NCBI GenBank assembly: GCA_023441905.1
Contig: JAEZNC010000106.1
Coordinates: forward strand, 1-32,139
DNA length: 32,139 bases
Direction of reading: 5' to 3'
DNA from: Bacillota bacterium
GTDB taxonomy: Bacteria; Bacillota; Clostridia; Christensenellales; SZUA-584
The notes under the pieces are model-generated. The model saw only the letters and a list, made by a program, of their open reading frames with translations, searched no databases and was not told the origin of the DNA. The translations under genes and the position numbers were made by a program. Below are positions 6,727 through 31,000 of this stretch, one piece after another. Every line of letters starts with the position of its first letter. The stretch's first letter is position 1.

Positions 6727-6735
6727 GAGGATACG

Positions 6736-7218: not shown

Positions 7219-7251
7219 TTGATTGCGTTTCAATACGTAAGAAAGTTTATT

Positions 7252-8112: not shown

Positions 8113-8126
8113 TGGTATTAAGCAGC

Positions 8127-9847: not shown

Positions 9848-9850
9848 CCT

Positions 9851-10825: not shown

Positions 10826-10838
10826 TATAGGCAAAATC

Positions 10839-13258: not shown

Positions 13259-13282
13259 CATACAACTGAATAAATATGGCAT

Positions 13283-13372
13283 GGAGAGTTGGCTGAGTGG
13301 TCGAAGGCGCATGACTGGAAATCATGTTTACGGGTAACCGTAACTAGGGTTCAAATCCCTAACTCTCCGCCA
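13283..13372 (+). tRNA. tRNA-Ser (anticodon GGA), CCA encoded
   Basis: Hand-folded cloverleaf: acceptor GGAGAGT/ACTCTCC, anticodon stem CATGA/TCATG with loop CTGGAAA, long variable arm TACGG-GTAA-CCGTA, and T arm TAGGG-TTCAAAT-CCCTA. The discriminator is G, followed by CCA. Confidence 0.93.
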
Positions 13373-14189: not shown

Positions 14190-14209
14190 ATATGAAAGGA
14201 GGAAACAGA

Positions 14210-16020: not shown

Positions 16021-16194
16021 ATGAATTTCACAGAAGGAAAGCTCCTGCAATACGAACGCATGATGCGGGAAAAGCCGGGTTTCGACCGCCGCCCTGTCAA
16101 GACGATGAAAGAGCGGGACTGCAAGCACTGCCTGTATTACGACGAACAGCGCCATAAGTGCGGCGTGGAAAAGTGCATCGTATTCAACGACTAA
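16021..16194 (+). CDS. Small Cys-rich (zinc-ribbon-like) protein of the mobile-element backbone
   Basis: The track ORF was trimmed to ATG 16021. The 57-aa product is MNFTEGKLLQYERMM...CKHCLYYDEQRHKCGVEKC, with a CxxC...CxxxxC pattern. The function is unknown. Confidence 0.5.
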   Translation: MNFTEGKLLQYERMMREKPGFDRRPVKTMKERDCKHCLYYDEQRHKCGVEKCIVFND

Positions 16195-16367: not shown

Positions 16368-17150
16368 ATGAAGCTACTCAAAAACCGATTCGTCATTGGA
16401 GCCTTGTGCATCATCGCGGCGCTGCTGTTGAGCTTCCTTGCTTTACCGGCGTTACAGGGCGGCAACCAAAACGCGTATGTCAACGCCGTTCGCATGAAGC
16501 AGCCCGTACAGGCCGGAACCCAGCTCACCGCTGAAATGCTGGAAACGGTAAGCGTGCCGGAAAAGCTCGTGGAAGGCGGCGTCCGGGATATCCCATCGGC
16601 TGCCGGCAAGTACGCGGCCAATGACCTTTATGCCGGGGATTATCTGACTGCCGCCAAGCTCTCGGCCACGCTCGCAGAGCAGGATTCTTTTTCGGCTGGT
16701 ACACCAAAGGGAAAGATGGTGGTGTCGATCACGCTGCCGTCTTTGGCCTCCGGCGTTTCCGGCAGGTTGAAACCCGGCGACATCGTGACGGTCATGGCGC
16801 TGCCCAAAGGCTCGGTCAACCAATCGCTGGGTGTGGAGCCTGAAACGGACGGCGATGATCTGTCCGGCGCTGTCATCTATCCCGAATTGCAGTATATCGA
16901 GGTATGCATGGTGACGGCAAGCGATGGATCGGATGCCAGCGTCGCGGCCCGGCCTGACAAGGATGCAAAGAACAGCCTGCCCATGACAATATCCTTCTAC
17001 GCCACCGAGGAACAGGCTTTGAGATTGGCGGAGATTGAAAACCAGAGCATCATCCACCTTGCCTTTGTCGCCCGTGGAGAGGCAGCCTCGGAATTCCTGT
17101 CCGAAAGAGTGCTGTCCGAAGGTGTGACTGTGGGAACGGAGGTGGAATAA
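16368..17150 (+). CDS. cpaB: Flp pilus assembly protein CpaB/RcpC-like (SAF domain)
   Basis: ATG after TAGGAGGT. It has an N-terminal TM anchor (FVIGALCIIAALLLSFLAL) followed by a SAF-like segment (VRMKQPVQAGTQLTAEML). It is the first gene of the Tad operon. Confidence 0.75.
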   Translation: MKLLKNRFVIGALCIIAALLLSFLALPALQGGNQNAYVNAVRMKQPVQAGTQLTAEMLETVSVPEKLVEGGVRDIPSAAGKYAANDLYAGDYLTAAKLSATLAEQDSFSAGTPKGKMVVSITLPSLASGVSGRLKPGDIVTVMALPKGSVNQSLGVEPETDGDDLSGAVIYPELQYIEVCMVTASDGSDASVAARPDKDAKNSLPMTISFYATEEQALRLAEIENQSIIHLAFVARGEAASEFLSERVLSEGVTVGTEVE

Positions 17151-17151
17151 C

Positions 17152-17883
17152 ATGATCATCGCAATCTGGGGCCGTGATGGGATCGGCAAGAGTGCGCTCT
17201 GCGACACATTGGGCGCTCTGCTTGCAAAGCAAGGCGTTACGGCAATCCTTGATACCGACCTTACGCAGCCTACGCTGCCTGCTCGTTTGGGCGGCAAGAA
17301 GCTCGACGCGGATGCGTCGCTTGGCAAGGCCATAGGCATGAGCGCAATGGACGCAGCGCCATATCTGCACCAGCATCCGAAGCTCAAGAACCTGTTTTAT
17401 GCCGGACTGACCGACCGTGATGAATACCTCTCGTATGAGTTCGGCCTGGAGGTTGATGAGGCTGCGCAGATTTTTGTGGAACGGTGCGAAGAATTGGCCG
17501 ATACGGTCATCATTGATCTGTCAGGGCAACGCTGCGACCCTTTTCTGCCCGGTGCGCTCATCTATGCGGATAAAATAATAACCCTGTTCACGCCCGACGT
17601 TCAAGGCGTCTGTTGGTTCAACGGCATAAAGCATCTCTTAACCACCATGAACGCGCAGGGGCGCGTGCTGCCGGTTGCGGCAATGGCAGACCAACAGCAG
17701 CTTTCCGCCATCGAGAAGGCAATGGACGCGCGGTTCACCGCGGTGCTGCCCTATGTCCGGGAATTCAGGCAAATCCACGACACAGGTGCTTTCCCCACGG
17801 AAGGCGCGACGCCCGGCGCTGTGCGGTATCTGCGGGAGGCAAAAAAACTTTGCGGGCTGTTAAAGGGGGTTGATGAACAATGA
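17152..17883 (+). CDS. TadZ/CpaE-like ParA/MinD-superfamily ATPase with atypical Walker A
   Basis: 243-aa ORF starting 2 nt after the cpaB stop. The P-loop is IWGRDGIGKS, where the signature Lys of KGGxGK[ST] is not conserved. It occupies the position between cpaB and the secretion ATPase, as TadZ does. Confidence 0.6.
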   Translation: MIIAIWGRDGIGKSALCDTLGALLAKQGVTAILDTDLTQPTLPARLGGKKLDADASLGKAIGMSAMDAAPYLHQHPKLKNLFYAGLTDRDEYLSYEFGLEVDEAAQIFVERCEELADTVIIDLSGQRCDPFLPGALIYADKIITLFTPDVQGVCWFNGIKHLLTTMNAQGRVLPVAAMADQQQLSAIEKAMDARFTAVLPYVREFRQIHDTGAFPTEGATPGAVRYLREAKKLCGLLKGVDEQ

Positions 17884-19211
17884 GCCGAACATTCCGGGAA
17901 CTGGCTTACGAAAGGCAAAACACCGCTCCGCAGATCAAAGACGCATATGAAGCCATGTTGGAGCAGGTTCGCGTATCCATCTCTCAGAACCACGCGGAAA
18001 CACTCGCACAAAGCATTACGGAAAAGGACGCCTCGGATTCAGTAAGACGGCTCATCGGTGAGTACATCACCGAACACCATCTGCATATAGACGGCCTTTC
18101 CATGCACCAATTATCCGACAGGTTGTACGGCGATATGGCTGGCCTCGGATTCCTCGACCGGTACATTTCCGATCCCGACATCGAGGAAATCAACGGCAAC
18201 TCCTGGCGTGATATCGAAATAGTCACTCGCACTGGTTGGCGGAAGATACCCGAACGCTTCCTCTCGCCCAGGCACGCCGAGGACACCCTGCGCAAGATGG
18301 TACGGCTTGGCGGCCTGATATTGGACGCGACCAACCCGATTGTGGACAGCTACATCACGGAAGGCATCCGTGTGTCGGCTATGATCCCGCCCGTCGCTGA
18401 CAGGCGCAGCGGTGTGGTGTTCAGCCTGCGCCGCCAGCGCATGGCGCGGATCACGAAGGAACAGCTTGTCGAGTGGCACACAGCTACACCGGAAATGCTG
18501 GACTTCTTAGTATTGTGCATCAACCACGGCGTTTCAGTCGGGTTCGCGGGTAAAACGGGCAGCGGTAAAACGACGGACATCGCTTTCCTGCTGAACGCGG
18601 TAGATCGAAATAAGCGCATCTATACTATCGAGGAAACACGGGAGCTGGATTTGTTCAACGAGGATGGCGACGGGAAAGTGCAAAACCGCATTATCCACAC
18701 CTGCACGCGCCCGTCCGAGATGGAAAACGCCAATATCGATATGCATGACCTGCTGCGTAAGGCCATGCGCTATTCCCCGGACATCATCGCCGTCGCGGAA
18801 ATGCGCGGCGCGGAGGCAATGACCGCCCAGGAAGCAGCGCGCACAGGGCATACGGTCGTCACCAGTTTGCACGCATCGTCCGCCCGCAAAGCATACGGGC
18901 GCATGTTGAGCATGTGCCAGATGTCCAATACGCGCATCGCATCGGATATTCTGCTGGACTTCATCGTCGAAGCCTACCCGATCATGGTACACAAAAAGCA
19001 GCTCCCGGACGGCACGCGCCGCATCATGGAGATTGCCGAGGCTGTTGGAATACAAAACGGGACAGTGCAGACCAATACGCTCTATCGGTTCGACGGCGAA
19101 ACGGGCAAATATATCCGGGCGCACGGCATATCAGACGCGCTTGCGGATATTCTGCGCGAGAATAGCGCGGACAAAGCGGCGATTGCCCGCTTCAGGGAGG
19201 TGAAAACATGA
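17880..19211 (+). CDS. tadA: Tad/CpaF-type secretion ATPase (TadA)
   Basis: 443-aa ORF with an ATGA overlap to the upstream gene. Walker A (GKTGSGKTT), Walker B region (PDIIAVAEMRG) and His box (TGHTVVTSLHA) match the VirB11/CpaF family. Confidence 0.9.
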   Translation: MSRTFRELAYERQNTAPQIKDAYEAMLEQVRVSISQNHAETLAQSITEKDASDSVRRLIGEYITEHHLHIDGLSMHQLSDRLYGDMAGLGFLDRYISDPDIEEINGNSWRDIEIVTRTGWRKIPERFLSPRHAEDTLRKMVRLGGLILDATNPIVDSYITEGIRVSAMIPPVADRRSGVVFSLRRQRMARITKEQLVEWHTATPEMLDFLVLCINHGVSVGFAGKTGSGKTTDIAFLLNAVDRNKRIYTIEETRELDLFNEDGDGKVQNRIIHTCTRPSEMENANIDMHDLLRKAMRYSPDIIAVAEMRGAEAMTAQEAARTGHTVVTSLHASSARKAYGRMLSMCQMSNTRIASDILLDFIVEAYPIMVHKKQLPDGTRRIMEIAEAVGIQNGTVQTNTLYRFDGETGKYIRAHGISDALADILRENSADKAAIARFREVKT

Positions 19212-20134
19212 CCGTACAGATACTATGTGCCCTGCTTATCATAGCGGGGCTGTTCCTGCTGTTCAGAATCCGCCCCTCGGATATGACGGGCAGGCTTTCA
19301 AAGCCATTCGCACAGTACAGAGAAAGAAAACAGCGTATACGCAGGATTACCGGAAAACCGAAAGGAAAGATGGCGGCGACGGTGGACAGCGCGAAGGAAA
19401 TGCTTACGGCGGCGGGCATGGGCGAACAGGTCGATGCCTACAAGTGGGCGGCTGTCATACTGGCGGTTCTCGGTATGCTGTTCGGACTATCGTTGAACAA
19501 TTTTCTTGCGGCGCTGGTGCTGGCGGCAGGGCTTGGTTGCGCGCCGCTGATCGTGATCCGCATCCGCACCGGCGACTATGTTCGGAATTTGAACGAGAAG
19601 CTGGAAAACGCAATGGGCGCGGTCACGAACGGCTATATCGCGTCGGGCGATATCATCGGCGCTGTGGAAAACAGTCTGCGCCTGTTGCCGTCTCCGCTGG
19701 ACGGCGTATTCCGCCATTTTTTCAATGAAACGCAGTTGATCGACTCCGACATCGTGAAAGCCCTGCGCCGGATGCGCGAACGGATCAACAACCGGTACTG
19801 GCGGGATTGGTGCGACGTGCTGGTGCAATGCCAGCGCGATAAGCAGTTGCGGTATGCCTTACCCGGCATTGTGAGCAGACTTGGCGAAATGCGGCGTATC
19901 CAGATGGAAACCGACACGACGATCCGCAAGCAGATTGGCGATTATATCATCACGGTTATGCTTGTTTTGGGTGCTATTCCGATGATGGGCGCTATGATGC
20001 CCGATTGGTACATTATGCTTACCACATCGGTGGCAGGCAAAATTACGCTGGCCGTTGTGCTGGCCGCCGTTCTTGCAACCGCCGTATGGGTGGCGCGCCT
20101 ATATCGCCCGGTGGAAGGCGGTGAACAGCAATGA
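19208..20134 (+). CDS. tadB: TadB-like type II secretion system F-family membrane protein
   Basis: 308-aa polytopic membrane protein with ATGA coupling to tadA. Its position and topology are typical of TadB. Confidence 0.7.
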   Translation: MTVQILCALLIIAGLFLLFRIRPSDMTGRLSKPFAQYRERKQRIRRITGKPKGKMAATVDSAKEMLTAAGMGEQVDAYKWAAVILAVLGMLFGLSLNNFLAALVLAAGLGCAPLIVIRIRTGDYVRNLNEKLENAMGAVTNGYIASGDIIGAVENSLRLLPSPLDGVFRHFFNETQLIDSDIVKALRRMRERINNRYWRDWCDVLVQCQRDKQLRYALPGIVSRLGEMRRIQMETDTTIRKQIGDYIITVMLVLGAIPMMGAMMPDWYIMLTTSVAGKITLAVVLAAVLATAVWVARLYRPVEGGEQQ

Positions 20135-21009
20135 CGTTGATCCTTTACTCCATATCTGGTTTCCTGTTCGCCATCGGCCTATACCGCGTCGCACAGGCGG
20201 CACTTAGCCTGCCCAACGGCAAGGCTACGAAGGCGGTGCGCAACATCCACGGCAGGCGTGAGCTGACGCAGCGGTTTCAGGACGCGCTGTTGCCGTTGGC
20301 AAGGGTAATTTCCAAAATATTTCCGATGAGCGAATACAAAAAAAGGCGCTTGGAGGCCGACTTTTCGAGGCTGCATATTTTACAGGCGGCGGAGGATTAT
20401 GTTTCACAGGCGAAAACGCGCTCATTGCTGCTGACGCTCATCGGCCTGATCTTCATCCCGTTCGGTATTCCGTGGTTAGCTTTGATTACCGCCGTCATCG
20501 CCGTTCTTGCCTATTTCCAGAGTATGCAGAGCATCCGCAAGCGCGTGGAAGTGCAGAACCGCGAGATCGAAGCGGAGATGCCCCGGCTGACGGAAACGCT
20601 TTTATACACGCTACGGGAAAACCGCGACCTGCTCACTTTCTTTGAAAGGTACAGGAAAGTGGCGGGCAAGGCGCTGGGTGCGGAGCTTGACCGGCTGATA
20701 ACCGACATGAAAACGGGCAATCAAGAAGCGGCGCTTCGAAGGATGGACGCGCGGCTGGGTCTTCCGTCGTTTGCGGCGCTCTGTGCGGTGCTGTGCGGCG
20801 TATACCAAGGCGTAGACCAACATTTAAGTCTACTTGTTTTAGAGCAGGACATGAGGGCAAAAGAGCGTGAAATGCTCCGAAGGCTTATGGAAAAGCGCCC
20901 CGGCAGGATCAAAGCGGCCTCGTTCATCCTGACGATACTCCTGATATTCCTCTTTATGATTCCCCTCGTACTGCTGATCATCAATAACCTACAGGCCGTG
21001 GGCTTCTAA
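20131..21009 (+). CDS. tadC: TadC-like type II secretion system F-family membrane protein
   Basis: 292-aa polytopic membrane protein with ATGA coupling to tadB. It is the second T2SS-F paralogue, as in Tad loci. Confidence 0.7.
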   Translation: MTLILYSISGFLFAIGLYRVAQAALSLPNGKATKAVRNIHGRRELTQRFQDALLPLARVISKIFPMSEYKKRRLEADFSRLHILQAAEDYVSQAKTRSLLLTLIGLIFIPFGIPWLALITAVIAVLAYFQSMQSIRKRVEVQNREIEAEMPRLTETLLYTLRENRDLLTFFERYRKVAGKALGAELDRLITDMKTGNQEAALRRMDARLGLPSFAALCAVLCGVYQGVDQHLSLLVLEQDMRAKEREMLRRLMEKRPGRIKAASFILTILLIFLFMIPLVLLIINNLQAVGF

Positions 21010-21027
21010 ACCATTCATCCGCTTTTA

Positions 21028-21062
21028 CAGGCAGCGCCGAAAGGAGGGCTGCTGTTTTTTTG
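21028..21062 (+). terminator. Terminator-like hairpin after tadC
   Basis: GC-rich imperfect stem (GCAGC...GCTGC core) followed by a run of eight T. Confidence 0.5.
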
Positions 21063-21089
21063 CTGCCCAAAGGGAGCGGATTTTATATA
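21060..21089 (+). promoter_or_regulatory. Possible sigma-A promoter of the pilin gene
   Basis: TTGCTG, an 18-nt spacer, then TATATA. It lies about 55 nt upstream of the pilin ATG and directly after the tadC terminator. Confidence 0.35.
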
Positions 21090-21142
21090 CATCAAACCCC
21101 CAACCATCATCAAAACAAAATAAAGAAAGGAAGATTATCACT

Positions 21143-21346
21143 ATGTTGAAAATCAAGAACTCCATCAAGCGTTTCGTTTCCGAGAAGAAGGCCGAGGGCT
21201 TTTTGGATGTCGCAATGAAAATTCTGATCGTCGTCGTTATCGGCGCGGCAGTGTTGCTCATCCTCAACGCTGCTATGCCCACCCTGTTCCAAGACCTGAT
21301 CGACAAAATTTCCGGCGAACTCACCGGCGTGAACGTGCTGCCGTAA
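21143..21346 (+). CDS. flp: Flp-type (type IVc) prepilin, probable major pilin
   Basis: 67-aa ORF after AAAGGAAG. It has a basic leader ending KKAEG, then FLDVAMKILIVVVIGAAVLLIL, which is class III signal peptide architecture. The size is typical of Flp pilins. Confidence 0.7.
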   Translation: MLKIKNSIKRFVSEKKAEGFLDVAMKILIVVVIGAAVLLILNAAMPTLFQDLIDKISGELTGVNVLP

Positions 21347-21371
21347 ACGGCAACAAATACAGGAATGGCGT

Positions 21372-21396
21372 GGGGCTGCCGCGAGGCAGCCCCTTT
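21372..21396 (+). other. Perfect 9-bp GC-rich hairpin with GCGA tetraloop 3' of the pilin gene
   Basis: GGGGCTGCC-GCGA-GGCAGCCCC followed by TTT only. It lies between the pilin stop (21346) and the next SD, and could be a partial terminator or an mRNA 3'-end stabiliser. Confidence 0.55.
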
Positions 21397-21414
21397 CCAT
21401 TGAAAGGAGCCGAT

Positions 21415-21840
21415 ATGAAAAAGAGATTGATACGCGACCAGACCGCAGAAGGGTACATCGACGTGGCCGTCACCATTCTGATCATCTTTACCCTCATGGC
21501 GTCGTTGCTGGCGCTTTACCCCATATTTACGGCACAACAGTCCCTGAACCAGACAGCGCGGCATATGGCAAGAACCATAGAACTGTACGGCAAAGCGGAT
21601 GAAGAAACGCTCCAATCAGTGACTGAGGATGGGAGCTTTCTTGCGCCTGACAGCATTGAGGTCGAAACAGAATGGCATAACGCGGCTGAAAAGACGATCC
21701 AGCTCAAGACGGCATTCACCGTCGTCATGACAAAGACCGTCCCCATCGTGATACTGCGGCCTGTGTTGGGAACCCCTGTCGTCATCAACGTACAGATTTC
21801 CGCAGCCGCAAGGGGCGTGTCGGAGGTGTATTGGAAATGA
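21415..21840 (+). CDS. TadE-like pseudopilin
   Basis: ATG 21415 after AAAGGAG. The leader is MKKRLIRDQTAEG, followed by YIDVAVTILIIFTLMASLLAL. The Gly-junction motif is the same as in the pilin: AEG|(F/Y)(L/I)DVA. Confidence 0.6.
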   Translation: MKKRLIRDQTAEGYIDVAVTILIIFTLMASLLALYPIFTAQQSLNQTARHMARTIELYGKADEETLQSVTEDGSFLAPDSIEVETEWHNAAEKTIQLKTAFTVVMTKTVPIVILRPVLGTPVVINVQISAAARGVSEVYWK

Positions 21841-22301
21841 TACGCTTTTTGAAGGACAGCACCGGCAGCGCGCTTATCTGGGCGGTATTCCTTACCCTCA
21901 TTCTTTTCACGGTTTCCGTAGTGGTTTATTCGGGCGTGATGATATATACGAAATACCAAACCTGTGAAACCGAAGTGCAGCGAGCGGCGACCATAACCAC
22001 GAACATGAGCATGGCCAACGCCAATGTGCGCGATCTTGAATTAGATGTTCCAGCTATACCGGCTGAGGATTATTTTTATGAAAACTTGACTGAAACGGGC
22101 TGGACGATGGCGGATGGATGCTGGCGCAGGTACGAGAACGGCAAGCTCATTTACAGCCTTGAGGACATGACAGTGGACATTGTTGGTAAAACCATACGGA
22201 TTACCGCGACATTCGCCATGCCCCTGCCCTGGGGCATCGGCGGTATTGGCGAAGTACATATCTCATTAAACGTGCGGTCATCGGTACTGTATATCGAATG
22301 A
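21837..22301 (+). CDS. Pseudopilin-like protein (TadF/TadG position)
   Basis: ATG 21837 overlaps the previous stop (ATGA). The N-terminus is MIRFLKDSTG, followed by SALIWAVFLTLILFTVSVVVY. Confidence 0.5.
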   Translation: MIRFLKDSTGSALIWAVFLTLILFTVSVVVYSGVMIYTKYQTCETEVQRAATITTNMSMANANVRDLELDVPAIPAEDYFYENLTETGWTMADGCWRRYENGKLIYSLEDMTVDIVGKTIRITATFAMPLPWGIGGIGEVHISLNVRSSVLYIE

Positions 22302-22314
22302 AAGGAGGCTCTAT

Positions 22315-25233
22315 ATGAAAAAGAAGAAAAAGATTGTAGTCATTCTGGCCGCGATCTTGGTTGTGCTTACGTCGCTTGTGCTGTTTTCTTCTACGGCGCT
22401 GGCCGCCGTTAATATCTCATCAAGAAATGTGACCAATATGTTCGATTACAACGGGGGCAGCGGATGGGCGGATTTGAAAACCCCTGAGCATTATGTTGTA
22501 GGCAGCTCCCCCGAACAGGTTGCCTATTGCCTCCAACATAAGAACGACAGCCCTTCCGGTTCCTCGTATAACGAAACAGATATTTTAGACAGCTATTCAG
22601 CGCGCGTTCGGACGGGATTGAGGATCATTTTTGAAAACGGCTACCCCTACGCAACAGGCGGCCTGACGGCGACGGAAGCACGGTACGCAACCGCCAATGC
22701 CGTGCGCTTCTGGCTGTCTGAAAATGGCGACAGCGGACAATACAACTTCACCAATCTTGGTTCGTATACCGACGCGCAGCTTCGCACCGCAGCCGCCAGC
22801 GGGCAGATCGGCAGCAAGATCAGAGCCAATTCAGGATATACCGATGTGCTGCAATTCTCCGTTGAATTGCTTATTAAAGCTCGGGCGCAAGCCCTGATGA
22901 CGCACGACATTGGACTGTCCACCCCTTCTATGTATATCAGCGGCAGCTACTTCGTCGGCACTGCCAGCGTGTCGCTCACCAACATGAACGGTGGATATTC
23001 GCTGGATACCACCGCGCTGCCATCCGGCTCCAGCGTGGCCGGTTACACGGGACAATCCGGGGATGTATTGACGGTGAGGATTCCCTTAAACGAAGCAAAC
23101 GCCAACCGAACCTTTTCCATATCGGCAACGGGCAGGGACAATAGGACGCGAAGTAATATGTTTGCCTACGCGCCTTCCAGCAGTAGCCTTCAACGCGTTA
23201 TCGTAGCTAAAAACGCGATATACAATGAAGCAAAGACCGTCTCGGTGTCCTTTGGAACGCCGCAAATCTACGCCGATCTTGTGGTCACGGCTTTTTATTC
23301 CGACGCTTCCGCATATAAGGCGGGTGACGCGATTACAATCACCGCTACTATCGCCAATCAGGGCCTTCGCTCTGCGGGCGGGTTTTATGTAGCATTAGGC
23401 TCACCTGACCTTTCGACACAGAGCAAATATGTTTCCTCACTGGCAGTAGGCGGCTCCACCAACGTCACCTTCAGCTATACCGCAGGCCAATACGCATCGG
23501 ATAAAACCATCAATATCACGGCAACCGCGGATTCTACCGGTGCTGTGGCCGAAAGCAACGAAAGCAACAACACTCGTTCGGCATCCTTCAAGGTGCTGGC
23601 ATATGTCCCTCCGCTGCCCGACCTTACAGTAACTTCCCTGACCAGCAACAAGGCCGAATACAAGGCGGACGAAACCATAACGATCACCGCCGCAATCCAA
23701 AACCAGGGAGTCGGCGCGGCAGGCGGTTTTTATGTGGCATTGGCATCCTCCGATCTTTCGACACAGAGCAAATATGTTTCCTCACTGGCAGTAGGCGGCT
23801 CCACCAACGTCACCTTTAGTTATACCGCAGGCCAGTACGCATCGGATAAAACCATCAATATCACGGCCACCGCGGATTCTACCGGCGCTGTGGCTGAAAG
23901 CAACGAAAGCAACAACACTCGTTCAGCATCCTTCAAGGTGCTGGCATATGTCCCTCCGCTGCCCGATCTGACTATTACCTCGCTTGCCGGAGACAAGACG
24001 CTTTATGAAGCCGGAGAAACGATAGTAATAACGGCTTCGGTTAAAAACATTGGTGAAAGTGCTTCGCCCGCAACAACGGTTCGGCTTACCGTCCCGGCCA
24101 TTGGAACATTCTCAGCAAATGTAGCGACGCTGAACGCGGGAGCAAGCCAGGCAGTGACGTTCTCCTTCACAGCGCCTACATCACTCAGCCCACAAACCGT
24201 TTCCATGACTGCATTCGCAGACCCCAACAATCTAATTGCAGAGAGCAATGAAAACAACAATACTCGCTCCGCGACAGTGTCCGTCAACGCATTGCGGCCG
24301 GATATTGAAATCGTGGATTCGACCATCATGGATTGGTATGCCGGTAAGGATGTTACAGTTTCGGCTACTGTCCGAAACCGAACTGACCAGCCTGTTCCTT
24401 CCGTAAGTATCCGGCTGACGATTGGCGGCGCGTCCTATACGGAACAAATCCCGGTTCCCGGAAGCGGAGACAACCTTGTGGTATTCAGAATCACCGTTCC
24501 GATTGCGAGAAACTACGCCGTCAAGCTCATCGCAGACCCGGACGGCGTGCTGAACGAAACGGACGAAGGAAATAACTCTTTGAGCAAAAACATTCAGGTT
24601 CTGACCATACCGGCTTGCATTGCGGCAGACCCCGATAACAGCGCGATGGAACAACGCCATAAAGTGTATGGGCTGACCAGCCTTCCCACGCTCACCTCAT
24701 CCGCCTACCACACATGGCAGGAGGTGCGTCTTGAGGATGGTAATTACATCACAAAAAACTTTTATGCGAGACTATCTACCACGTTTTCTATTTTACCGGA
24801 CAGCCGTATCGCCTATGCCGATAAGCCGCGCCAGATGGAATCAGGCTTCGGATTCAGCGTTCAATGCACGACCACCTTAGCCACCAACTATGACAGACCC
24901 GGCAAACTCGTTGGGGCGCAGATGGTTTGGATGCGCTGTCCCGAAAGTGCCTACGGCCAGCTATCGGAATGGCAAACCGTGCGGGATGCTCTGGAAGTCA
25001 AAACGGGCGCAGCCGGTGGTACGACAGCCACATGGCAGCTTGCCGTCAATCCTTGGTCAACAACAGGAAGTCGGCTGCATTACACTCCGCTTTGGTTCCC
25101 GGATGGCAACTATACGGTATGGGCGCAGGCGTTTTACGCATGGTCGCCTGTCGGCCAGCTCTACGAGCATAAAACCGACGCGCTGACCATATCGGGCGAT
25201 ATGTACGACCGGATCACGACAATAAGGCGGTGA
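22315..25233 (+). CDS. Large secreted surface protein with four CARDB repeats (candidate pilus-associated adhesin)
   Basis: 972-aa ORF after AAAGGAGG. It has a Sec-type signal peptide (MKKKKKIVVILAAILVVLTSLVLFSSTALA|A). Four CARDB-like units, each starting PD(L/I).(V/I) and ending ESNE.NN(T/S), span about 23272-24603. The N-terminal 300 aa contains a VAYCLQH motif. The C-terminal 210 aa was not recognised. There is no LPXTG motif and no C-terminal TM segment. Confidence 0.75.
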   Translation: MKKKKKIVVILAAILVVLTSLVLFSSTALAAVNISSRNVTNMFDYNGGSGWADLKTPEHYVVGSSPEQVAYCLQHKNDSPSGSSYNETDILDSYSARVRTGLRIIFENGYPYATGGLTATEARYATANAVRFWLSENGDSGQYNFTNLGSYTDAQLRTAAASGQIGSKIRANSGYTDVLQFSVELLIKARAQALMTHDIGLSTPSMYISGSYFVGTASVSLTNMNGGYSLDTTALPSGSSVAGYTGQSGDVLTVRIPLNEANANRTFSISATGRDNRTRSNMFAYAPSSSSLQRVIVAKNAIYNEAKTVSVSFGTPQIYADLVVTAFYSDASAYKAGDAITITATIANQGLRSAGGFYVALGSPDLSTQSKYVSSLAVGGSTNVTFSYTAGQYASDKTINITATADSTGAVAESNESNNTRSASFKVLAYVPPLPDLTVTSLTSNKAEYKADETITITAAIQNQGVGAAGGFYVALASSDLSTQSKYVSSLAVGGSTNVTFSYTAGQYASDKTINITATADSTGAVAESNESNNTRSASFKVLAYVPPLPDLTITSLAGDKTLYEAGETIVITASVKNIGESASPATTVRLTVPAIGTFSANVATLNAGASQAVTFSFTAPTSLSPQTVSMTAFADPNNLIAESNENNNTRSATVSVNALRPDIEIVDSTIMDWYAGKDVTVSATVRNRTDQPVPSVSIRLTIGGASYTEQIPVPGSGDNLVVFRITVPIARNYAVKLIADPDGVLNETDEGNNSLSKNIQVLTIPACIAADPDNSAMEQRHKVYGLTSLPTLTSSAYHTWQEVRLEDGNYITKNFYARLSTTFSILPDSRIAYADKPRQMESGFGFSVQCTTTLATNYDRPGKLVGAQMVWMRCPESAYGQLSEWQTVRDALEVKTGAAGGTTATWQLAVNPWSTTGSRLHYTPLWFPDGNYTVWAQAFYAWSPVGQLYEHKTDALTISGDMYDRITTIRR
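23376..23972 (+). repeat. Near-identical tandem duplication inside the CARDB gene (345-nt period)
   Basis: Blocks at about 23376-23627 and 23721-23972. From TTTCGACACAGAGC onward I count 8 differences in about 215 nt, and all 8 are synonymous third-position changes. Confidence 0.85.
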
Positions 25234-25239
25234 AGATAA

Positions 25240-25701
25240 ATGGAATTGCTGTTGAGCATCCTGACGGATGCTCTTTTTGTTTCTCTGTTGGCATGGTGCA
25301 GCTATACGGACATAAAGAAACGCATCGTTTCAAACCCTTCCGTTATTCTACTGCTATGCTTGGGGCTGGTGCATATGGCGCTTATGGTACTTGCCGGTAA
25401 TACATGGTGGACATATCCGGCTGGGCTGCTGTTGTCGGTTCCCTTCGTCATTGGATGGCTCAGAAACGGCATGGGTGCGGGCGATGTAAAGCTCATCATG
25501 GCAATCGGTTTATATCTGGGGTTGCTGAATACATTGGTATCCTTTGCCCTGATGGTTCCCGTGCTTGCCGTCCTTATGATCCGCTCTTGGACGAAAACCA
25601 AGACGCTCAAGGGCGTGGCGATACCCCTTACGCCGGTTATTGCCTTTGGCGCTACCGGCGCTGTGGCGCTCGGATACCTGTACGCTTTCATGCAGTTATA
25701 A
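25240..25701 (+). CDS. tadV: A24-family prepilin peptidase (TadV/CpaA type, no methyltransferase domain)
   Basis: 153-aa polytopic protein with the two catalytic Asp contexts: CSYTDIKKRIV and GMGAGDVKLIMAIG. Confidence 0.85.
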   Translation: MELLLSILTDALFVSLLAWCSYTDIKKRIVSNPSVILLLCLGLVHMALMVLAGNTWWTYPAGLLLSVPFVIGWLRNGMGAGDVKLIMAIGLYLGLLNTLVSFALMVPVLAVLMIRSWTKTKTLKGVAIPLTPVIAFGATGAVALGYLYAFMQL

Positions 25702-25719
25702 AAAGGAGGTGAATGCCGG

Positions 25720-25809
25720 ATGAAGATCATCATAACCGTGGTGCTGTGCCTGTTTATTGTCGGTGCGCTGATATATTTTCAAATCAAAAAGCGCAAGAAA
25801 TCGAAATGA
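25720..25809 (+). CDS. 29-aa single-TM micro-protein (not in the ORF track)
   Basis: ATG lies 8 nt after AAGGAGGTG. The product is MKIIITVVLCLFIVGALIYFQIKKRKKSK. The operon terminator follows directly. Confidence 0.5.
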   Translation: MKIIITVVLCLFIVGALIYFQIKKRKKSK

Positions 25810-25826
25810 TGATGGAGCGGTAAAAA

Positions 25827-25850
25827 GGGACGGCATATCCGTCCCTTTTG
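25827..25850 (+). terminator. Intrinsic terminator closing the Tad operon
   Basis: GGGACGG-CATAT-CCGTCCC followed by TTTTGT. Confidence 0.7.
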
Positions 25851-25878: not shown

Positions 25879-26481
25879 ATGAAAGAAGAAAAACGCATGG
25901 CAGGCGCATATGAAATCCTGTATGCAATCCACATTGGCGATAAGGAAATCGTATTTGGCGAAAACCCGGATATGGGCGCGCCTACCCGGTACTTTGCGGG
26001 CTGGTGTGATAAGGGCGACTTCTATGAACGATACATCGGGGATGAAACCGGCGACTATCTGAAAGCCATGCGGATATTTGTAGACGGCCTTTCGGCGCAG
26101 ATTGAAAAGGCGGAAAAGGAACGCGCTGCTGTAACCGTACCCATGGCTCCCATTACCGCCGAACAGTGTTATCCCAACGACCTGAGCCAGAACATTGAGG
26201 GTAAGGTTGTGGCGGTACGCGCCGGAGTGCTGAGAAGCGAGTGCCAGACGGCAGATCGCCAGCTTGTGCTGGTGACGGGCGGCTTTGGTTCGCACGCGAA
26301 CTCGCGCGGCAGCGCCGTATTCTGTACCAATCTCTATTATGGCAAGCATACCCGATGGGAACGGCGCGACATACAGGGCGAGGTAAAGCCGGAGCATCTT
26401 CCCGAGTGGGCAAAGGAACGCCTTGCCGCGTTACAGGCAGAAAAGCAAACGCCTGAGAAAAGCATTGATAAGGAGAGATGA
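25879..26481 (+). CDS. Conjugative-element accessory protein, function unknown (possibly DUF4314-type C-terminus)
   Basis: 200-aa ORF after AGGGGGAAAA. The segment VLVTGGFGSHANSRGSAVFCTNLYYGKHTRWERRDIQGEVKPEHLPEWAKE resembles a domain I associate with Firmicute ICEs, but the family name is from memory only. Confidence 0.5.
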   Translation: MKEEKRMAGAYEILYAIHIGDKEIVFGENPDMGAPTRYFAGWCDKGDFYERYIGDETGDYLKAMRIFVDGLSAQIEKAEKERAAVTVPMAPITAEQCYPNDLSQNIEGKVVAVRAGVLRSECQTADRQLVLVTGGFGSHANSRGSAVFCTNLYYGKHTRWERRDIQGEVKPEHLPEWAKERLAALQAEKQTPEKSIDKER

Positions 26482-26484
26482 GCC

Positions 26485-27297
26485 ATGGCAAAAGATATTA
26501 TTTTTAACGGTGCTTATGGACGTGAACTGTTTCGGATACCTGACGATACCTGCGTTGATGTGATTGCCTTTGACGGACAGAAAACCAGCTACCCATGCAA
26601 ATATGTAAGCGCCGCCGAAACGAACATCGGCGGCTGCATTTATGAATCAGACCTCTTTGCCCAGGAACAGGCGGAGAAAGGCTCGGTGTTTGCCCCAAGC
26701 GATAAGCGCCCGGAGGACATCGGGATGTACGAAATCTACCAGATACGCAGCACGCGCCATACGGATTACGCATTCCGCTCCTTTGAAGAAGCGCAAAATC
26801 AGTTTAATCCTCTGGACTATACGCGGGTGTACGCGGGGATGCTTTCTCCGGGTCAATCCTTAGAGAACCTGTTTGCGTTGCACAACGCTGACGAACGCCC
26901 CTTCGGGCGCAGGATGCGATCCATGTCTATGAGCGATGTGGTGGTCATCTTAAAGGATGGAGTTGCTGCCGCCCATTATGTGGATTCCTTCGGTTTTGCA
27001 CCTGCACCGCGATTTTTGGAGCCGGACACGCTCCCCGTTTCACAGCGGAACACCGTATCCGGCTATACCGTTACGGTCAGCGTCCCGATTGGCAACAAGG
27101 CGTTTGTGCTGGCGGAGAATCCGCGCGCCGTTCAGCCCTTCGTCACATGGCAGAGCAGCCGGGACAACAAAAGCTGCGAATGGGGCCATTATTATGACCG
27201 CCGCACGGACGCGGTGCGGGATTTATACCGGCGCGTGAATCAGGAACGGGATTTTCAGCGTGATTTCCCGCCGAAAAAGAAAGATTTGGAGAGGTGA
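26485..27297 (+). CDS. YodL-like domain protein
   Basis: 270-aa ORF. The core YEIYQIRS..DYAFRSFEEA...Y..VY.G.L......LE.LF..HN.D.RPFG..MRSMSMSDVVVI...G...AHYVDSFGF matches my recollection of the YodL-like domain, which is common in conjugative-element polyvalent proteins. Confidence 0.6.
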   Translation: MAKDIIFNGAYGRELFRIPDDTCVDVIAFDGQKTSYPCKYVSAAETNIGGCIYESDLFAQEQAEKGSVFAPSDKRPEDIGMYEIYQIRSTRHTDYAFRSFEEAQNQFNPLDYTRVYAGMLSPGQSLENLFALHNADERPFGRRMRSMSMSDVVVILKDGVAAAHYVDSFGFAPAPRFLEPDTLPVSQRNTVSGYTVTVSVPIGNKAFVLAENPRAVQPFVTWQSSRDNKSCEWGHYYDRRTDAVRDLYRRVNQERDFQRDFPPKKKDLER

Positions 27298-27302
27298 ATG
27301 AC

Positions 27303-27992
27303 ATGGAATTGAATATCCGTGCTATGACGCCCGAGGAAACCAAGTACAGCTATAGCCAGAGCCAGCAGCTTAGGATGCAGTGCGGCAGCATCGGACATCT
27401 GCGCGGGGATTTCGGTACCAAGGGCTACGAGTTTTATACAACCTGGGACGACCATAATCAACGGCTAAAAACAGAAGCCTTCAAATCAGAGCTTGATGAG
27501 GTTATCAATGCTCTACGCTCCGATGGGTGCGGACTCTTGAAAGACCGCTACGCCATGGGCGAGTTCAAACAGCGATATCCCGAAAGCGCCTTTATGGGCA
27601 ATTACACCACCGAATACGGGTTTCGGGTGGATACCCAGGAGTACGCCTACCTGCTGCGCTGCAATCCGGTTCGGGGCGATTATAATTTCTACTGTTTTTG
27701 CTATCAGGCAAAATGGCTGGACAGAAACATGGAGAAGGCCCGGCAGGGCATCCGCTTTATTGACAGCGGATACAAGGAGCTTTTCCGCGTCCCGGACGGC
27801 GGCAAGATCGTGATAACTGCCGCCTGGGGCGAAAAGATGGAACGCGCCTGCCGGTATATCGACGACACGCATGTGGAGGTAGGAAAAGAGCTGTACCACA
27901 TCTGCCAGTTTGCCGAAATCATGGAGAAAAACGGCGCGTCATATAAGCCGTTTGAGAAAAACCAGCCGAAAAATAAAGATTACGAACGATAG
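27303..27992 (+). CDS. Conjugative-element accessory protein, function unknown
   Basis: ATG 27303 lies about 7 nt after GGAGAGGTG (the track start is GTG 27294). The 229-aa product shows no catalytic motif that I recognise. Confidence 0.5.
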   Translation: MELNIRAMTPEETKYSYSQSQQLRMQCGSIGHLRGDFGTKGYEFYTTWDDHNQRLKTEAFKSELDEVINALRSDGCGLLKDRYAMGEFKQRYPESAFMGNYTTEYGFRVDTQEYAYLLRCNPVRGDYNFYCFCYQAKWLDRNMEKARQGIRFIDSGYKELFRVPDGGKIVITAAWGEKMERACRYIDDTHVEVGKELYHICQFAEIMEKNGASYKPFEKNQPKNKDYER

Positions 27993-28004
27993 GAGGTGCC
28001 GCAG

Positions 28005-31000
28005 ATGGCGCGAAAATATGAGCTGATTACCGAGCTGTATCAACAGACACTGGGGGAAATCACATCCTCGCAAGGGGCGTGGCGGGCCTTCCTGCGTAGC
28101 GCCTGCTGCAACTATAAATGCCGGTTTGACGAGCAGGTGTTGATTTACGCGCAACGCCCGGACGCCAGGGCTGTGCTGGAGCTGGATGATTGGAACAAAA
28201 AGCTCGGACGTTGGGTCAACCGTGGCGCGGCCGGTATCGCCGTATTCGATGACATTCACACGGGCTGCTCCCGGCTCAAGCACTATTTCGATATTTCCGA
28301 TACCCACGCCAGCCGCTTCTCCCGCCCGGTGCCCATATGGGAGATGCAGGAACGGTATGAGGATGAGGTCATCGAGGCGCTGGAAGCCTCCTTCGGCGCG
28401 GTACAGGACAACGGTTCTTTGGAAAGTACGCTTCTGCAAATCGTCTCCAACGTTGTGGAGGACAATGAGCAGGACTATTTCCGTGAGCTGATGTACTGCC
28501 GTGAGAACAGCTTGCTGGAGGAATTGGACGAATTTAATGTGGAGGTGTATTTCAGGCAGGCGCTGGAAGCCTCCGTGTCATATATGTTGCTGGAGCGGTG
28601 TCTGGGCGGCGCTGCCGACCAGTATGCCGCGCTTGTGGATTTTTCGCCTATACTGAACTTCAATACCCGCGAAACTGTCAATGCCCTTGGCATCGCCACC
28701 AGCGATATGGCCGAAATGGTGCTCAAGGAAATTGCCCTGACTGTCCGCAATATCCAGAAACGGGAACGCCAGCAAAATCGCACAGTTGATAAACCGCAGG
28801 AGGCCGGTTATCCTGTAAATGAACAGGAAACAAATGAGCCGGAAAGGAGTTTTGCATATGAATCTGACATACCGCAAAGAGGGCGACTACAATCTGCCCA
28901 ACCTGCTGCCCCCGCAGGAGACGGAGGTACACCTTGGGAAATACGCATTGCTGCGCCGGAAGTTCCTGAAGGAGAACCGCCGCGTGACCTACACCAACCT
29001 TCTGACATCGGGCAAGCTCAACAGCCACCTGATGGAGATCGAGCGGACGGCGCTTACGAGGCTGGAGCAGATGGTGCCGCAGATGGCGAAGGCCGAGGGC
29101 GTGACGGAGGAACTGAAAGCCACCGATCAGATGAAATGGGTGGGCCTGATGAACAACATCCGTCACTCGGCGGAGGAAGCGATACTGAGCGAACTGATCT
29201 ACAACTAAATACCGAAAGCCCCGAAGAAGCGGACAGCGACGAGCTGCCCGCTTTTTTAGATGACACGCTCATCATGGGCGTCATCGCCAACAAAGACGAT
29301 GAACTCAAATACAAAAAACAGCAGATCGCGCTGTTCTTCTCCATTCATCCCGACGAGAGCGAACGCGCGGAATATATCAAATCCGCCTATCCCGACCGCT
29401 ATACGGAAATCCTGGTGGGCGCAAAGCGCGTCGGCTTTAAGCCCCAGGAGGACGGTTTGCTCATGTGGGAGGGCGCATACCTCTCCCGCAGCAGCGAGGC
29501 CGTTTTTTCGTGGCAGACCGTTGCCGCGTGGACGGCGCAGCTCATAGAGAAAAAGGAATACCATATCAACAGGGACATTAAGGCGCTCAAAACTCAGGCA
29601 GGCCAGCAAATGTCCCTTTTTGATTTATCCCCGGTGGAGAGCGACACGCCATATGAGCAGGTATCTCTTGCGAGAGCGTTCGCTATCCCGCAGAGCGTTA
29701 TTGACGAAGCCCTGTGCCTGGGCGGGAACGAGCCGTATTGTCTGGAGCGCATATGCGCGTGGTTCTTGAAGGATTATCCACTGGAGCAAAACGCGGCGTT
29801 TCTGTGCGAGGAATATGGCACCTCCGGCAAGGGCTTTTTCTCCGGCGTCAGCCCGTATGCCCTCTGGTTCGATGGGGCCGGTATCCGTGTCGGTATGGGC
29901 CGGGCGGCGCAAAGCGCCACGACCCTTATTACCTGGGAGGCCGCCGCGAAACGAATCCGTGAGCTTTTGGACACGGGGCGCTATGTCCCTCAGAGCGTAC
30001 TGGATAACGCGCCGGAGAACGAGCGCAAGGAACTGGCCGACCATCTCTGGTATACGGTACAGGATTTTTCGCGGGAAGCCCACGACGAGAACCTTATCCC
30101 TACGATCCTTGAAATATATAATGGGCACGGCGGTTTCCCGGACAACACCGCGCAAATCCGCGAGCTGCTAAAGGACGGCGAAACGGTATCCACGCTCATC
30201 ACCGAGGTGGAAGCCTTTGCCGTGCGCTATGCTGAGAATCCCGACCTGATGCGCTTCCGGTTCCGCCGCCATGACGAAATACTCACCGGCTTACACGGCC
30301 TTTTGCGCCCGCATATCGAGTTTTCTGCCAGCCCGGATTTCTCCCTTGAACCGAAACAGTTTATTACCAACGATGAAATCGACCGACTGCTCACCGGCGG
30401 CAGCAATGTCCAGCACAGTAAGTTCCGTATCTACTCGTACTATTTGGAAGGACACACCCCTAAAGAAAGAGCCGACTTCCTGAAGCACGAATATGGTTCA
30501 GGCGGCGGCGGGCGGCTGGGCTTTGACGAATGGCACGATTCCAAGGGCATCACCTACAAGCGGGAAAACGCCCAGTTTGTTCCCTACGATACTATCCTTC
30601 TTAAATGGCCGCAGGTGGAAAAGCGCGTCAGCGAGCTGATCCGGCAGGGCAAATATATGTCGGAAAAAGAACTGGCGTATATCCCAACGTATGAAAAGCA
30701 TGAGCTGGCGCGGGAGATTCAGGGCTTTTTCTCAGGGCTTCCCCAGGAAACCCCACGCCCCTATCCGCATGGCTTTGATTTCTATGAAGCTGTGAAGCTG
30801 ATCGAGCCGCAGCTTGGCGATCCGGCGCGGGTGGAAGAAATCTATCAAATGATGCTGCCGGTATGGGAAAGCACAACCCAGGGCGACCGGTATTATGACT
30901 TTCAAGAACGGGTTTTTGAGCATATGACAGCGTACCGCAATGGTACGTTTTCTTTATTTGGCGAGAAAAAAGGGCCAGCGGCTATCCCGGCTCAAGCAGA

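Follow-up and report, generated by a model that had tools for sequence, protein, structure and literature searches.

How donor cells of Gram-positive bacteria find and hold their recipients is poorly understood (PMC8092201). The locus described here lies in contig JAEZNC010000106.1 (assembly GCA_023441905.1) of a Bacillota bacterium (Clostridia, Christensenellales, SZUA-584), and this complete 32,139-bp contig is the window of our analysis. Judged by the homology of its parts list, the locus encodes a putative secretin-less, Tad-like pilus machine, which forms a fixed module of an integrated Clostridia (Christensenellales-type) element. In this gut-type Clostridia bacterium the pilus genes stand where related elements have their mating adhesin, a position suggesting that pili are made by some Gram-positive conjugative elements in order to catch recipients.

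The pilus operon comprises eleven co-directional, translationally coupled open reading frames (ORFs) on the plus strand (16368-25809; Table 1), just as a first-pass annotation of the sequence had placed them. Its start/stop overlaps (ATGA) fall exactly at 17880, 19208, 20131 and 21837, an AGGAGG does stand 11 nt ahead of the first ATG (16368), and the terminator proposed after the last gene is borne out by a perfect hairpin followed by a T-run. A GGAGG-like Shine-Dalgarno sequence lies 6-12 nt upstream of each operon gene. In the gene set one start had to be moved: the second pilin begins at ATG 21415 (141 amino acids, aa), because the upstream GTG (21370) sits within a hairpin. Profile searches agreed with the functions assigned for T2SSE, RcpC/SAF, Peptidase_A24 and CARDB, and gave no match for T2SSF (directly), TadE or Flp_Fap. 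With its CpaF/TadA ATPase, platform, CpaB and A24 peptidase, the set is indeed Tad-like (type IVc-like). As had also been noted, neither the operon nor its flanks have an ORF for a secretin, TadD or RcpB, and monoderm Tad versions are expected to be without the outer-membrane parts RcpA secretin, RcpB and TadD (PMC6916266).

The clearest member of the machine is the secretion ATPase, which matches Pfam T2SSE (1.1e-26) and the NCBIfam models for FlaI (2.8e-42) and the TadA family (1.4e-39). Its best relative in the PDB is CpaF (1.7e-37), with an archaeal GspE-type ATPase, FlaI, VirB11 and PilT following behind; it thus belongs to the TadA/CpaF clade, as does the ATPase of a Tad system. The CpaB/RcpC component is likewise present, its Pfam RcpC (1.3e-9) and SAF (3.9e-8) matches lying above the Pfam cutoffs and its TIGR03177 match (1e-15) under that model's cutoff. 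A dedicated small A24 peptidase of the TadV/CpaA type completes this group; Asp24 (SYTDIKKR) and Asp82 (GMGAGDVKL) are its candidate catalytic residues as read from the sequence, and it matches EppA weakly (2.4e-4). The 243-aa ATPase at the TadZ/CpaE position is without a receiver-like N-terminal domain and gives weak ParA/Mrp matches over residues 2-54; no solved TadZ matched it at E<1. A homologue occurs in every module examined; the Walker A motif reads GRDG[ITF]GKS among close-family members, and those of the distant family have G[SAT]P[NGR][SC]GKT. GRDGIGKS had been read as a degenerate P-loop. It is conserved and fits the classical GxxxxGK[ST], and the protein is without the deviant KGGxxGK[ST] signature of ParA/MinD.

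Two paralogous single-domain platform proteins, the next component of a Tad system, are recognisable at the family level only. Neither the TadB-like nor the TadC-like protein of the window has a direct Pfam or NCBIfam match, and profile searches of both against PDB sequences returned chance matches only. Their paralogy emerges when the two family alignments (A1 and A2) are compared by hhalign, which aligns the cytoplasmic helical domain with a probability of 83% (E=9e-6). A Bacillus homologue of the TadB-like protein gives a weak T2SSF match (E=0.0013). In the TadC family, which has 693 representatives at 50% identity, 9 of 76 members match Pfam T2SSF (PF00482; best E=3.5e-6), and no other family recurs. 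The AlphaFold2 (AF2) model of the TadC-like protein has a pLDDT of 95.4, and among known structures it finds compact matches solely in the cytoplasmic domains of OutF and EpsF (TM 0.67-0.71, root-mean-square deviation 3.0-3.4 A), with a Foldseek probability of up to 0.87, yet with E-values >1. The homologue on plasmid pTPHSE1 is annotated as 'secretion protein F' by PGAP.

The prepilins depart further from the Tad pattern. The major prepilin, labelled flp in the first-pass annotation, stands outside Pfam Flp_Fap; together with 10 diverse relatives it matches DUF6133 or nothing, and the Flp motif (G↓xxxxEY, the arrow marking the cut) is absent. Its size and architecture, with a short leader and a mature helix of ~50 aa, are nevertheless Flp-like, and its DUF6133 family comprises 364 clusters at 90% identity. 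In the DUF4320 pilin, which is encoded in every module examined, the leader MKKRLIRDQTA↓EGYIDVAV... has the same junction motif as that of the major pilin and is followed by a globular C-terminal domain. The third prepilin-like protein has no Pfam match and aligns with the KKG↓FSYIL group of distant loci, its Gly falling in the -1 column. Tip-type minor pilins often have no acidic residue at +5. As neither minor pilin matches TadE, the two are candidate TadE/TadF analogues by position and signal peptide only.

Class III signal peptides have a small residue at -1, a basic one at -2 and an acidic one at +5. We compared 39 distinct N-termini from the window, 19 genome loci and plasmids. The junction had been read as AEG↓(F/Y)(L/I)DVA, but the Gly placed there at -1 is Gly in 29 of the 39 and S, L, T, F, M or A in the other 10, so that this cut is probably misplaced by two residues. 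Two positions upstream, the residue is invariably small (Ala 20/39, Gly 19/39). Counted from there, the -2 residue is K or R in 27/39, -3 is K in 26/39 and +5 is Asp in 32/39. The invariant A/G and the class III rules together make K-(A/G)↓E-G-(F/Y)-(I/L)-D the most likely junction. For the major prepilin we propose the cut MLKIKNSIKRFVSEKKA↓EGFLDVAMKILIVVV..., which would leave a mature protein of ~50 aa. By these alignments the predicted junction is a fairly ordinary class III site, and still a variant in that position +5 is Asp, Tyr6 is absent and half of the cases have Ala at -1. The hairpin directly after the pilin gene occurs in 11 of 11 close loci with compensatory stem changes; it probably acts as a partial terminator or stabilises the mRNA and so permits an excess of pilin, and such an arrangement is what one would expect where a major pilin is over-produced compared with its machine.

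Since most machine components agree with those of Tad systems and the Flp_Fap and TadE tests failed, we file the predicted system as a Tad variant rather than a canonical member. It resembles the Tad/Flp systems of Aggregatibacter (tad), Caulobacter (cpa), Bifidobacterium breve and Micrococcus luteus in its CpaF/TadA-type ATPase, paired platform proteins and CpaB/RcpC, in its tiny pilin with two minor pilins, in a small A24 peptidase without a methylase domain and in the arrangement of all these in one operon; monoderm Tad systems likewise are without a secretin. However, its pilins are DUF6133 and DUF4320 proteins rather than Flp_Fap and TadE proteins, its junction reads K-(A/G)↓EG(F/Y)(I/L)D, and its 243-aa ATPase, with a classical Walker A and no N-terminal domain, differs from TadZ. 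Unlike known Tad/Flp operons, that of the window also includes a Sec-exported giant repeat protein, and the module is embedded in a mobile-element backbone. It keeps CpaB, a component that a 2019 review lists as missing from monoderm Tad systems; according to the same review, the studied Firmicutes type IV pili are all of type IVa, and the studied monoderm type IVc pili are actinobacterial and without RcpC (PMC6916266). Type IV pili of archaea, the EppA-dependent (Epd) ones among them, share with it the class III signal with K/R at -2 and G/A at -1, an ATPase of the FlaI/TadA clade and a small peptidase (the window peptidase being a weak match to the EppA model). In contrast to these, it has a bacterial host, the bacterial Tad features CpaB and paired TadB/TadC, and Glu rather than Gln at +1.

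That the locus sits in a mobile element, as the first-pass annotation held, follows from its left edge and its relatives. Positions 1-12.5 kb of the window are chromosomal, with xanthine-dehydrogenase-type and molybdenum-cofactor genes (90-11745; Pfam). GC then falls to 0.40-0.45 around 12-14 kb, at a tRNA-Ser that is the probable left junction between chromosome and element. All genes from parA to the contig end lie on the plus strand, the GC of the pilus module equals that of the flanking backbone, and the flanks are as described earlier: parA and parB upstream; YodL, TnpV and a giant methylase-bearing ORF downstream (Pfam). In eleven close loci from Christensenellales and other Bacillota metagenome-assembled genomes, with identities of 62-87%, the order is parA, parB, (a small Cys-rich gene), cpaB, ..., the A24 gene, the 29-aa gene, a 200-aa gene and YodL, and parA and parB are syntenic throughout. 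Downstream, backbone genes are 85-95% identical in loci L005, L006 and L010. Upstream of parA, the DNA is unrelated in nearly all 11 loci, none of which has a tRNA there. The unrelated DNA indicates that the element occupies differing chromosomal sites and that the pilus module, fixed in its place after parAB, travels with it. Chromosomal integration with boundaries that vary between genomes, as expected of an integrative and conjugative element (ICE), is thus seen at the left edge.

The pilus had been called either mobile cargo or a functional module. The evidence favours the second part of that alternative, a module of the element backbone, over loose cargo. The true variable cargo of the relatives (defence genes, group II introns) consists of insertions, unlike the pilus module. 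The gap between the large-protein gene and the A24 gene is an insertion hot spot in relatives: in L022 (1-6170) it holds a helicase, an MZB-domain gene and a Dcm/Vsr gene, in L005 (12886-15441) and L007 (17310-20461) 2.5-3 kb of extra genes, and in L002 (17000-21113) two copies of the peptidase gene.

More distant loci (TadA ~35% identical) have the same parts in a slightly altered order, with tandem DUF6133 pilins first, and some of them adjoin parB or TnpV. Three of these loci (L013, L015 and L017) encode a 1120-1322-aa Flg_new-repeat protein after the minor pilins, and in L013 an AAA_10/TraG-type ATPase gene lies 5 kb downstream of the module.

Linkage to transfer genes is seen on plasmids too. 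Complete plasmids from Terrisporobacter petrolearius, Clostridioides difficile, Subdoligranulum and an Oscillospiraceae isolate carry the module according to a tblastn search of PLSDB with TadA, which returned 328 Bacillus records as well. A megablast of the operon against PLSDB plasmids gave no match, and a plasmid census by DUF4320 tblastn, a search too insensitive for the purpose, gave 2 records. On pTPHSE1, pCd5_2 and CP141730.1 (Oscillospiraceae) the module is co-directional with genes for a VirD4-like type IV coupling protein (T4CP) and a VirB4-like protein (DUF87 or a homologue). Two of the three also carry pLS20_p028-type genes and one or two carry TrbL/VirB6 and wall hydrolases; the relaxases are MobP2 on pTPHSE1 and MobP3 on CP141730.1. 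The order on CP141730.1 matches that of the window exactly: parAB comes first and several genes follow, the A24 gene among them; next stand cpaB, the ATPases and platforms, and the module ends with pilin, DUF4320, third pilin and a 1610-aa PKD-like protein. In Bacillus thuringiensis NC_018486.1, cpaB, an AAA ATPase, CpaF/VirB11 (TadA identity 27%), two ~300-aa genes and two ~67-aa genes stand together, with DUF4320 nearby. In the PLSDB/MOB-suite typing, L024, L025 and L110 (NZ_CP154620.1, NZ_CP037841.1 and CP141730.1) are all 'non-mobilizable', whereas PGAP annotates a VirD4-like T4CP in 3/3, a MobP2 or MobP3 relaxase in 2/3 and DUF87 (VirB4-type) in 1/3; standard typing under-calls the mobility of these Clostridia plasmids.

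Sister elements show what else the backbone may carry at the same place. These elements, without pilus genes and with a polyvalent protein 50-56% identical to that of the window, have a homologue of the 29-aa gene, and the stretch from parB to this gene encodes a protein of 1377-1462 aa with a canonical TED (both Cys and Gln), SpaA repeats and a PKTGDD sorting signal. In the Tad-less L026 and L028 the 29-aa homologue comes directly after the sortase-anchored TED adhesin; in L022 it comes after the gene for the A24 peptidase. Because the slot from parB to the 29-aa gene is shared, the Tad-like module with its TED-like/CARDB protein occupies the adhesin slot of the backbone.

This 972-aa protein belongs to a family of 226 clusters whose members span 850-1677 aa by repeat number. 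Its Ig-like repeats match Pfam CARDB (1e-68, four stretches matched), its N-terminus matches Pfam TED (2e-5; 25.4 bits against a cutoff of 22) and its C-terminal domain is PF26615/DUF8195. It has an ordinary Sec signal peptide and is without a sortase sorting signal or C-terminal anchor. In the TED-like domain, C72, H75, N128, R131 and W133 are invariant, the Cys lying within (V/I)AYC(L/I)(Q/E)H. The position of the canonical thioester TQ reads YATANA(V/I)RFW in all aligned homologues, so that the Cys-Gln pair that marks TIE adhesins is not there. A thioester-forming TED was rejected because the Gln is missing. The invariant Asn128 stands where thioester domains carry Gln. Foldseek matched the model of the protein to generic Ig-repeat arrays only, such as alpha-2-macroglobulin and mastigoneme proteins, and gave no information on its N- and C-terminal domains. 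The DUF8195 domain (window 24613-25233) has many invariant Trp, Tyr and Asp across 58 homologues, despite its poor AF2 model; a partner, for instance the minor pilins, may be needed for it to fold. The type of large protein differs by lineage, from CARDB in the window to Flg_new repeats in L013, L015 and L017 and the PKD-like protein of CP141730.1, which is the pattern expected of a specificity determinant.

From these parts we propose the following mechanism. The A24 peptidase would cut the prepilins after the invariant A/G, leaving Asp at +5, and the CpaF-like ATPase with the TadB/TadC platform would polymerise the ~50-aa DUF6133 pilin, over-expressed by means of the hairpin that follows the pilin gene. 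Priming and capping of the filament may fall to the DUF4320 pilin and to the one that has no acidic +5, and CpaB would guide the filament through the wall. The TED-like/CARDB protein would be the adhesin, probably displayed at the tip in the manner of PilY1; its lack of a wall anchor and the analogy with PilY1-type proteins and Myxococcus Tad tips are our reasons for placing it there. Exchangeable Tad tips are known in Myxococcus (PMC12075869). The pilus would then be an organelle of mating-pair formation that catches recipients in fluid on behalf of the element's type IV secretion system (T4SS), which would be encoded past the contig end and would move the DNA. It would thereby replace the sortase-anchored thioester adhesin that sister elements have in the same slot. 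We regard the probability that the pilus captures recipient cells for conjugation as evenly balanced, on account of the replacement in the adhesin slot, the linkage to T4SS genes, the lineage-specific large protein and the precedent of IncI, TP114 and PAPI-1.

Type IV pili serve conjugation in IncI/TP114 plasmids and PAPI-1 (PMC12857230; PMC9045228). The thin pili of IncI1 R64 and IncI2 TP114 and the pilus of PAPI-1 resemble the window system in that a type IV filament machine and a separate T4SS occur on one conjugative element, with variable adhesin determinants and a proposed stabilisation of mating pairs in liquid or the gut. However, those are type IVb systems (PilQ/PilR/PilS/PilV) of secretin-bearing diderms, with a role shown experimentally, whereas the window system is Tad-like, its host presumably monoderm and its role inferred. 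On the Gram-positive side, experiments have shown that pLS20 needs the TED adhesin encoded in its conjugation operon to conjugate efficiently, above all in liquid (PMC8092201). The TIE adhesin of pLS20 and the TED-SpaA adhesins of L026-L029 have, as does the window protein, an N-terminal TED-type domain followed by Ig-like repeats, and the TED-SpaA adhesins occupy the same backbone slot. In contrast to these adhesins, the window protein has the Cys without the Gln (YATANAVRFW as opposed to ATQxxxW), CARDB rather than SpaA/Cna repeats and no sorting signal, and it is accompanied by a pilus machine.

Several points weigh against a role in conjugation. Tad pili are classical organelles of adhesion and colonisation, and such a function explains the machine equally well. 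No relaxase, T4CP, VirB4 or integrase gene lies within the 32-kb contig, which ends (32139) inside the polyvalent gene. The conjugative nature of the element, and with it the 'conjugative-element backbone' of the first-pass annotation, is inferred from relatives rather than seen in this contig. The closest relative, L022, aligns at 90% nucleotide identity over 3.9 kb at the start of the polyvalent gene. Followed for 10 kb, it contains group II introns, DUF3848 and a 471-aa helix-turn-helix (HTH) protein, and no T4SS. With its 495 relatives, the HTH gene is widespread in the backbone, and a metagenome scan for it gave 80 loci, in which L031 (92% identical) is rearranged and uninformative; transfer-type genes appear only at ~70%, where a CHAP-domain protein is encoded in L034 (72%), and a relaxase and a T4CP follow the HTH gene in L086 (68%), the last of these counting in favour of a link to transfer. 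The 972-aa protein has no more than a presumed association with the pilus, and its analogy with thioester adhesins is partial, the Gln being absent. Its AF2 model has a mean pLDDT of 75, good for the N-domain and the repeats and mostly <50 for residues 767-972. Finally, the cleavage site is a prediction, and the polytopic pair is accepted as putative divergent TadB/TadC (T2SS-F) at family level, on weak evidence.

The strongest competitor is a pilus that serves the host, an organelle of adhesion or colonisation, as in the 'widespread colonization island', for attachment to gut mucus, particles or other cells, which the element would carry as cargo solely for the gain in host fitness. Of the Tad pili studied by experiment, every monoderm one and most of the diderm ones function in adhesion or colonisation, e.g. 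in B. breve (PMC6916266), horizontal transfer of Tad loci is frequent (PMC6668835), and plasmids with Flp pili are known in Cutibacterium acnes (PMC5696575); proteins with CARDB, Flg_new or PKD repeats are, moreover, typical surface adhesins. We nevertheless consider this explanation unlikely, albeit one to be taken seriously. Cargo would not be expected to hold a fixed backbone position, co-directional and translationally coupled with the backbone, across the 11 loci at their 62-87% identity, nor to fill the adhesin slot of sister elements upstream of the 29-aa gene. The module also adjoins T4SS genes in three unrelated Clostridia plasmids and has a homologue on a plasmid of Bacillus, a non-gut organism, and what is really cargo here comes as variable insertions.

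Two further explanations assign the machine to the passage of DNA or protein. The ATPase could be the VirB11 of the element's T4SS, as it is annotated in pAW63/pXO2, or the pilus machine could itself be part of the route of DNA translocation, as has been proposed for PAPI-1. The ATPase does match the NCBIfam VirB11 model (2e-36), the pAW63 tra region encodes a 444-aa ATPase called VirB11 followed by 278-aa and 250-aa coding sequences (PMC1196294; PMC9673590), and PAPI-1 transfer requires its type IV pilus (PMC12857230). Yet CpaF is a far closer solved relative than VirB11 (132 as opposed to 57 bits), and the gene is flanked by a complete pilus set, with genes for CpaB, the two platform proteins, the A24 peptidase and three prepilins. 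Known Gram-positive T4SSs work without VirB11, which also speaks against this assignment, and the plasmid relatives already hold genes for VirB4, a VirB6-like protein, a T4CP and a hydrolase, the usual monoderm type. We therefore regard it as improbable. Still less probable, and to be considered only marginally, is a DNA-uptake (competence) pilus as in M. luteus, where transformation is mediated by Tad pili (PMC6916266), or a T2SS-like pseudopilus that releases the 972-aa protein, whose counterparts are always encoded beside minor pilins. Neither the module nor its relatives have ComEA-, ComEC- or DprA-like genes, and a mobile element has no obvious gain from a competent host; as for secretion, the signal peptide of the 972-aa protein is of the ordinary Sec kind, and no second step is required in a monoderm.

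A wider proposal can be made: that a widespread family of conjugative plasmids and ICEs in Clostridia, and perhaps in the B. cereus group, encodes its own Tad-like pilus, which could be retractile, with exchangeable giant tip adhesins. This would be the first dedicated conjugative pilus of monoderms, whose conjugation systems are associated with surface adhesins and not with pili in the literature consulted; we put it forward tentatively, with somewhat less confidence than the capture of recipients itself. The nearest Bacillus counterparts are the 'VirB11' of the tra regions of pAW63, pXO2 and pBT9727 and the CpaB-AAA-CpaF clusters of B. cereus-group plasmids, at a distant relationship; NC_018486.1 has a similar gene set, and on pAW63 the ATPase lies within the tra region. 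Membership of pAW63 in the module family is a lead. In the pAW63 paper and in a 2022 review of conjugation in the B. cereus group, this ATPase is 'VirB11' and pili are not mentioned (PMC1196294; PMC9673590). A December 2025 review of T4SS diversity describes partnerships with type IV pili for Gram-negative elements only (PMC12857230), and in one C. difficile genome paper the CpaB, CpaE and CpaF genes appear just as strain-specific genes. No relevant paper came up for DUF4320, DUF6133, PF19629, PF14208 or 'conjugative Tad', and the literature searched describes neither the module nor its association with Gram-positive transfer regions, though subscription journals may hold a description.

A mating pilus, if that is what the module makes, would explain the efficient transfer of such elements in fluid anaerobic habitats, e.g. 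the gut, and would provide a handle on host range, as the large tip protein varies between lineages. It would also require re-annotation of the 'VirB11' of Bacillus conjugative plasmids, so read since 2005, and could give a function to DUF6133, DUF4320, DUF8195 and the unassigned platform family. Cultivable carriers exist in Terrisporobacter, C. difficile, the Oscillospiraceae isolate and B. thuringiensis. Should adhesion be the only role of the pilus, the locus would still present a variant of the Tad family, in pilin and junction, that the Pfam Flp_Fap and TadE models miss.

Table 1. Positions of the features discussed, in window coordinates.
Feature	Position	Strand	Remarks
tRNA-Ser(GGA)	13283..13372	+	ARAGORN
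parA	14192-15037	+	Pfam AAA_31/CbiA/ParA; first conserved element gene
parB	14985-15932	+	Pfam ParB_N/HTH_ParB
57-aa Cys-rich protein	16021..16194	+	CxxC...CxxxxC (CKHC...CGVEKC); between parB and cpaB
CpaB/RcpC-like protein	16368..17150	+	N-terminal transmembrane helix, SAF and RcpC domains
Short SIMIBI-class P-loop ATPase, 243 aa	17152..17883	+	TadZ/CpaE position; Walker A GRDGIGKS
TadA/CpaF-type hexameric secretion ATPase	17880..19211	+	Walker A GKTGSGKTT, Walker B DIIAVAEMRG, His box GHTVVTSLHA
TadB-like polytopic platform protein	19208..20134	+	paralogue of TadC-like neighbour
TadC-like platform protein	20131..21009	+	divergent T2SS protein F; family-level evidence
Major prepilin, 67 aa	21143..21346	+	Pfam DUF6133 1.7e-7
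GC-rich hairpin and T-run	21372..21393	+	directly after pilin gene; 9-bp stem, 8 GC pairs (terminator scan)
Minor pilin, 141 aa	21415..21840	+	Pfam DUF4320 4e-21 and N-terminal DUF6133 match
Third prepilin-like protein, 154 aa	21837..22301	+	leader MIRFLKDSTG↓SALIWAVFL..., no acidic +5
Sec-exported surface protein, 972 aa	22315..25233	+	TED-like N-terminus, CARDB repeats, DUF8195 C-terminus
Small A24 prepilin peptidase, 153 aa	25240..25701	+	Pfam Peptidase_A24 1.5e-14, without methyltransferase domain
29-aa single-transmembrane peptide	25720..25809	+	backbone gene after adhesin gene; conserved in L003, L009, L011
Terminator-like hairpin	25823..25849	+	AAAAGGGACGG-CATAT-CCGTCCCTTTT, perfect 11-bp stem and T-run, deltaG -24.3 kcal/mol
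Downstream backbone	25879..32138	+	200-aa protein, YodL, 232-aa protein, polyvalent frame
YodL-domain protein	26485-27297	+	Pfam YodL
Polyvalent methylase frame, >1378 aa	28005 to contig end	+	Pfam N6_Mtase; homologues 1890-2339 aa with SNF2 helicase domains
TnpV ORF, nested in other frame	28819-29208		inside 28005-32138; Pfam TnpV E=5e-43

Some minor features of the element deserve mention. The 57-aa Cys-rich protein has counterparts of 56-67% identity at the equal position in L001-L004 and L011 (tblastn), and might regulate the pilus operon as a small zinc-ribbon protein. At the left edge, a truncated copy of the 5' half of the tRNA-Ser lies 89 nt upstream of the intact one (13209-13234 compared with 13298-13323, 92% identical; window 13193-13372), and may be a relic of a former integration or deletion at the site. 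An attachment-site repeat is undefinable, as the right end of the element falls beyond the contig.

The polyvalent gene presents its own peculiarities. The TnpV ORF nested in it may be a genuine gene or a chance open frame. Within the overlap, GC by codon position is 0.55/0.32/0.80 in the TnpV frame, which is normal, and 0.81/0.56/0.33 in the long frame, which encodes a G/D/P/A/E-rich linker there. Both frames stay open in L022 at 90% nucleotide identity; an exact look-up of the TnpV protein returned zero records, and gene callers give just the overlapping long ORF. A 285-nt segment of the window gene (31066-31352) is missing in the 90%-identical L022 (13062-13069); as its length is divisible by three, it is an in-frame indel in a linker region. 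In the closest relative, the polyvalent methylase/helicase gene is broken up by two genes for reverse transcriptases of group II introns (L022:16401-22611; L023:9730-15940), and a similar interruption of tra genes by group II introns is described in the pAW63 literature.

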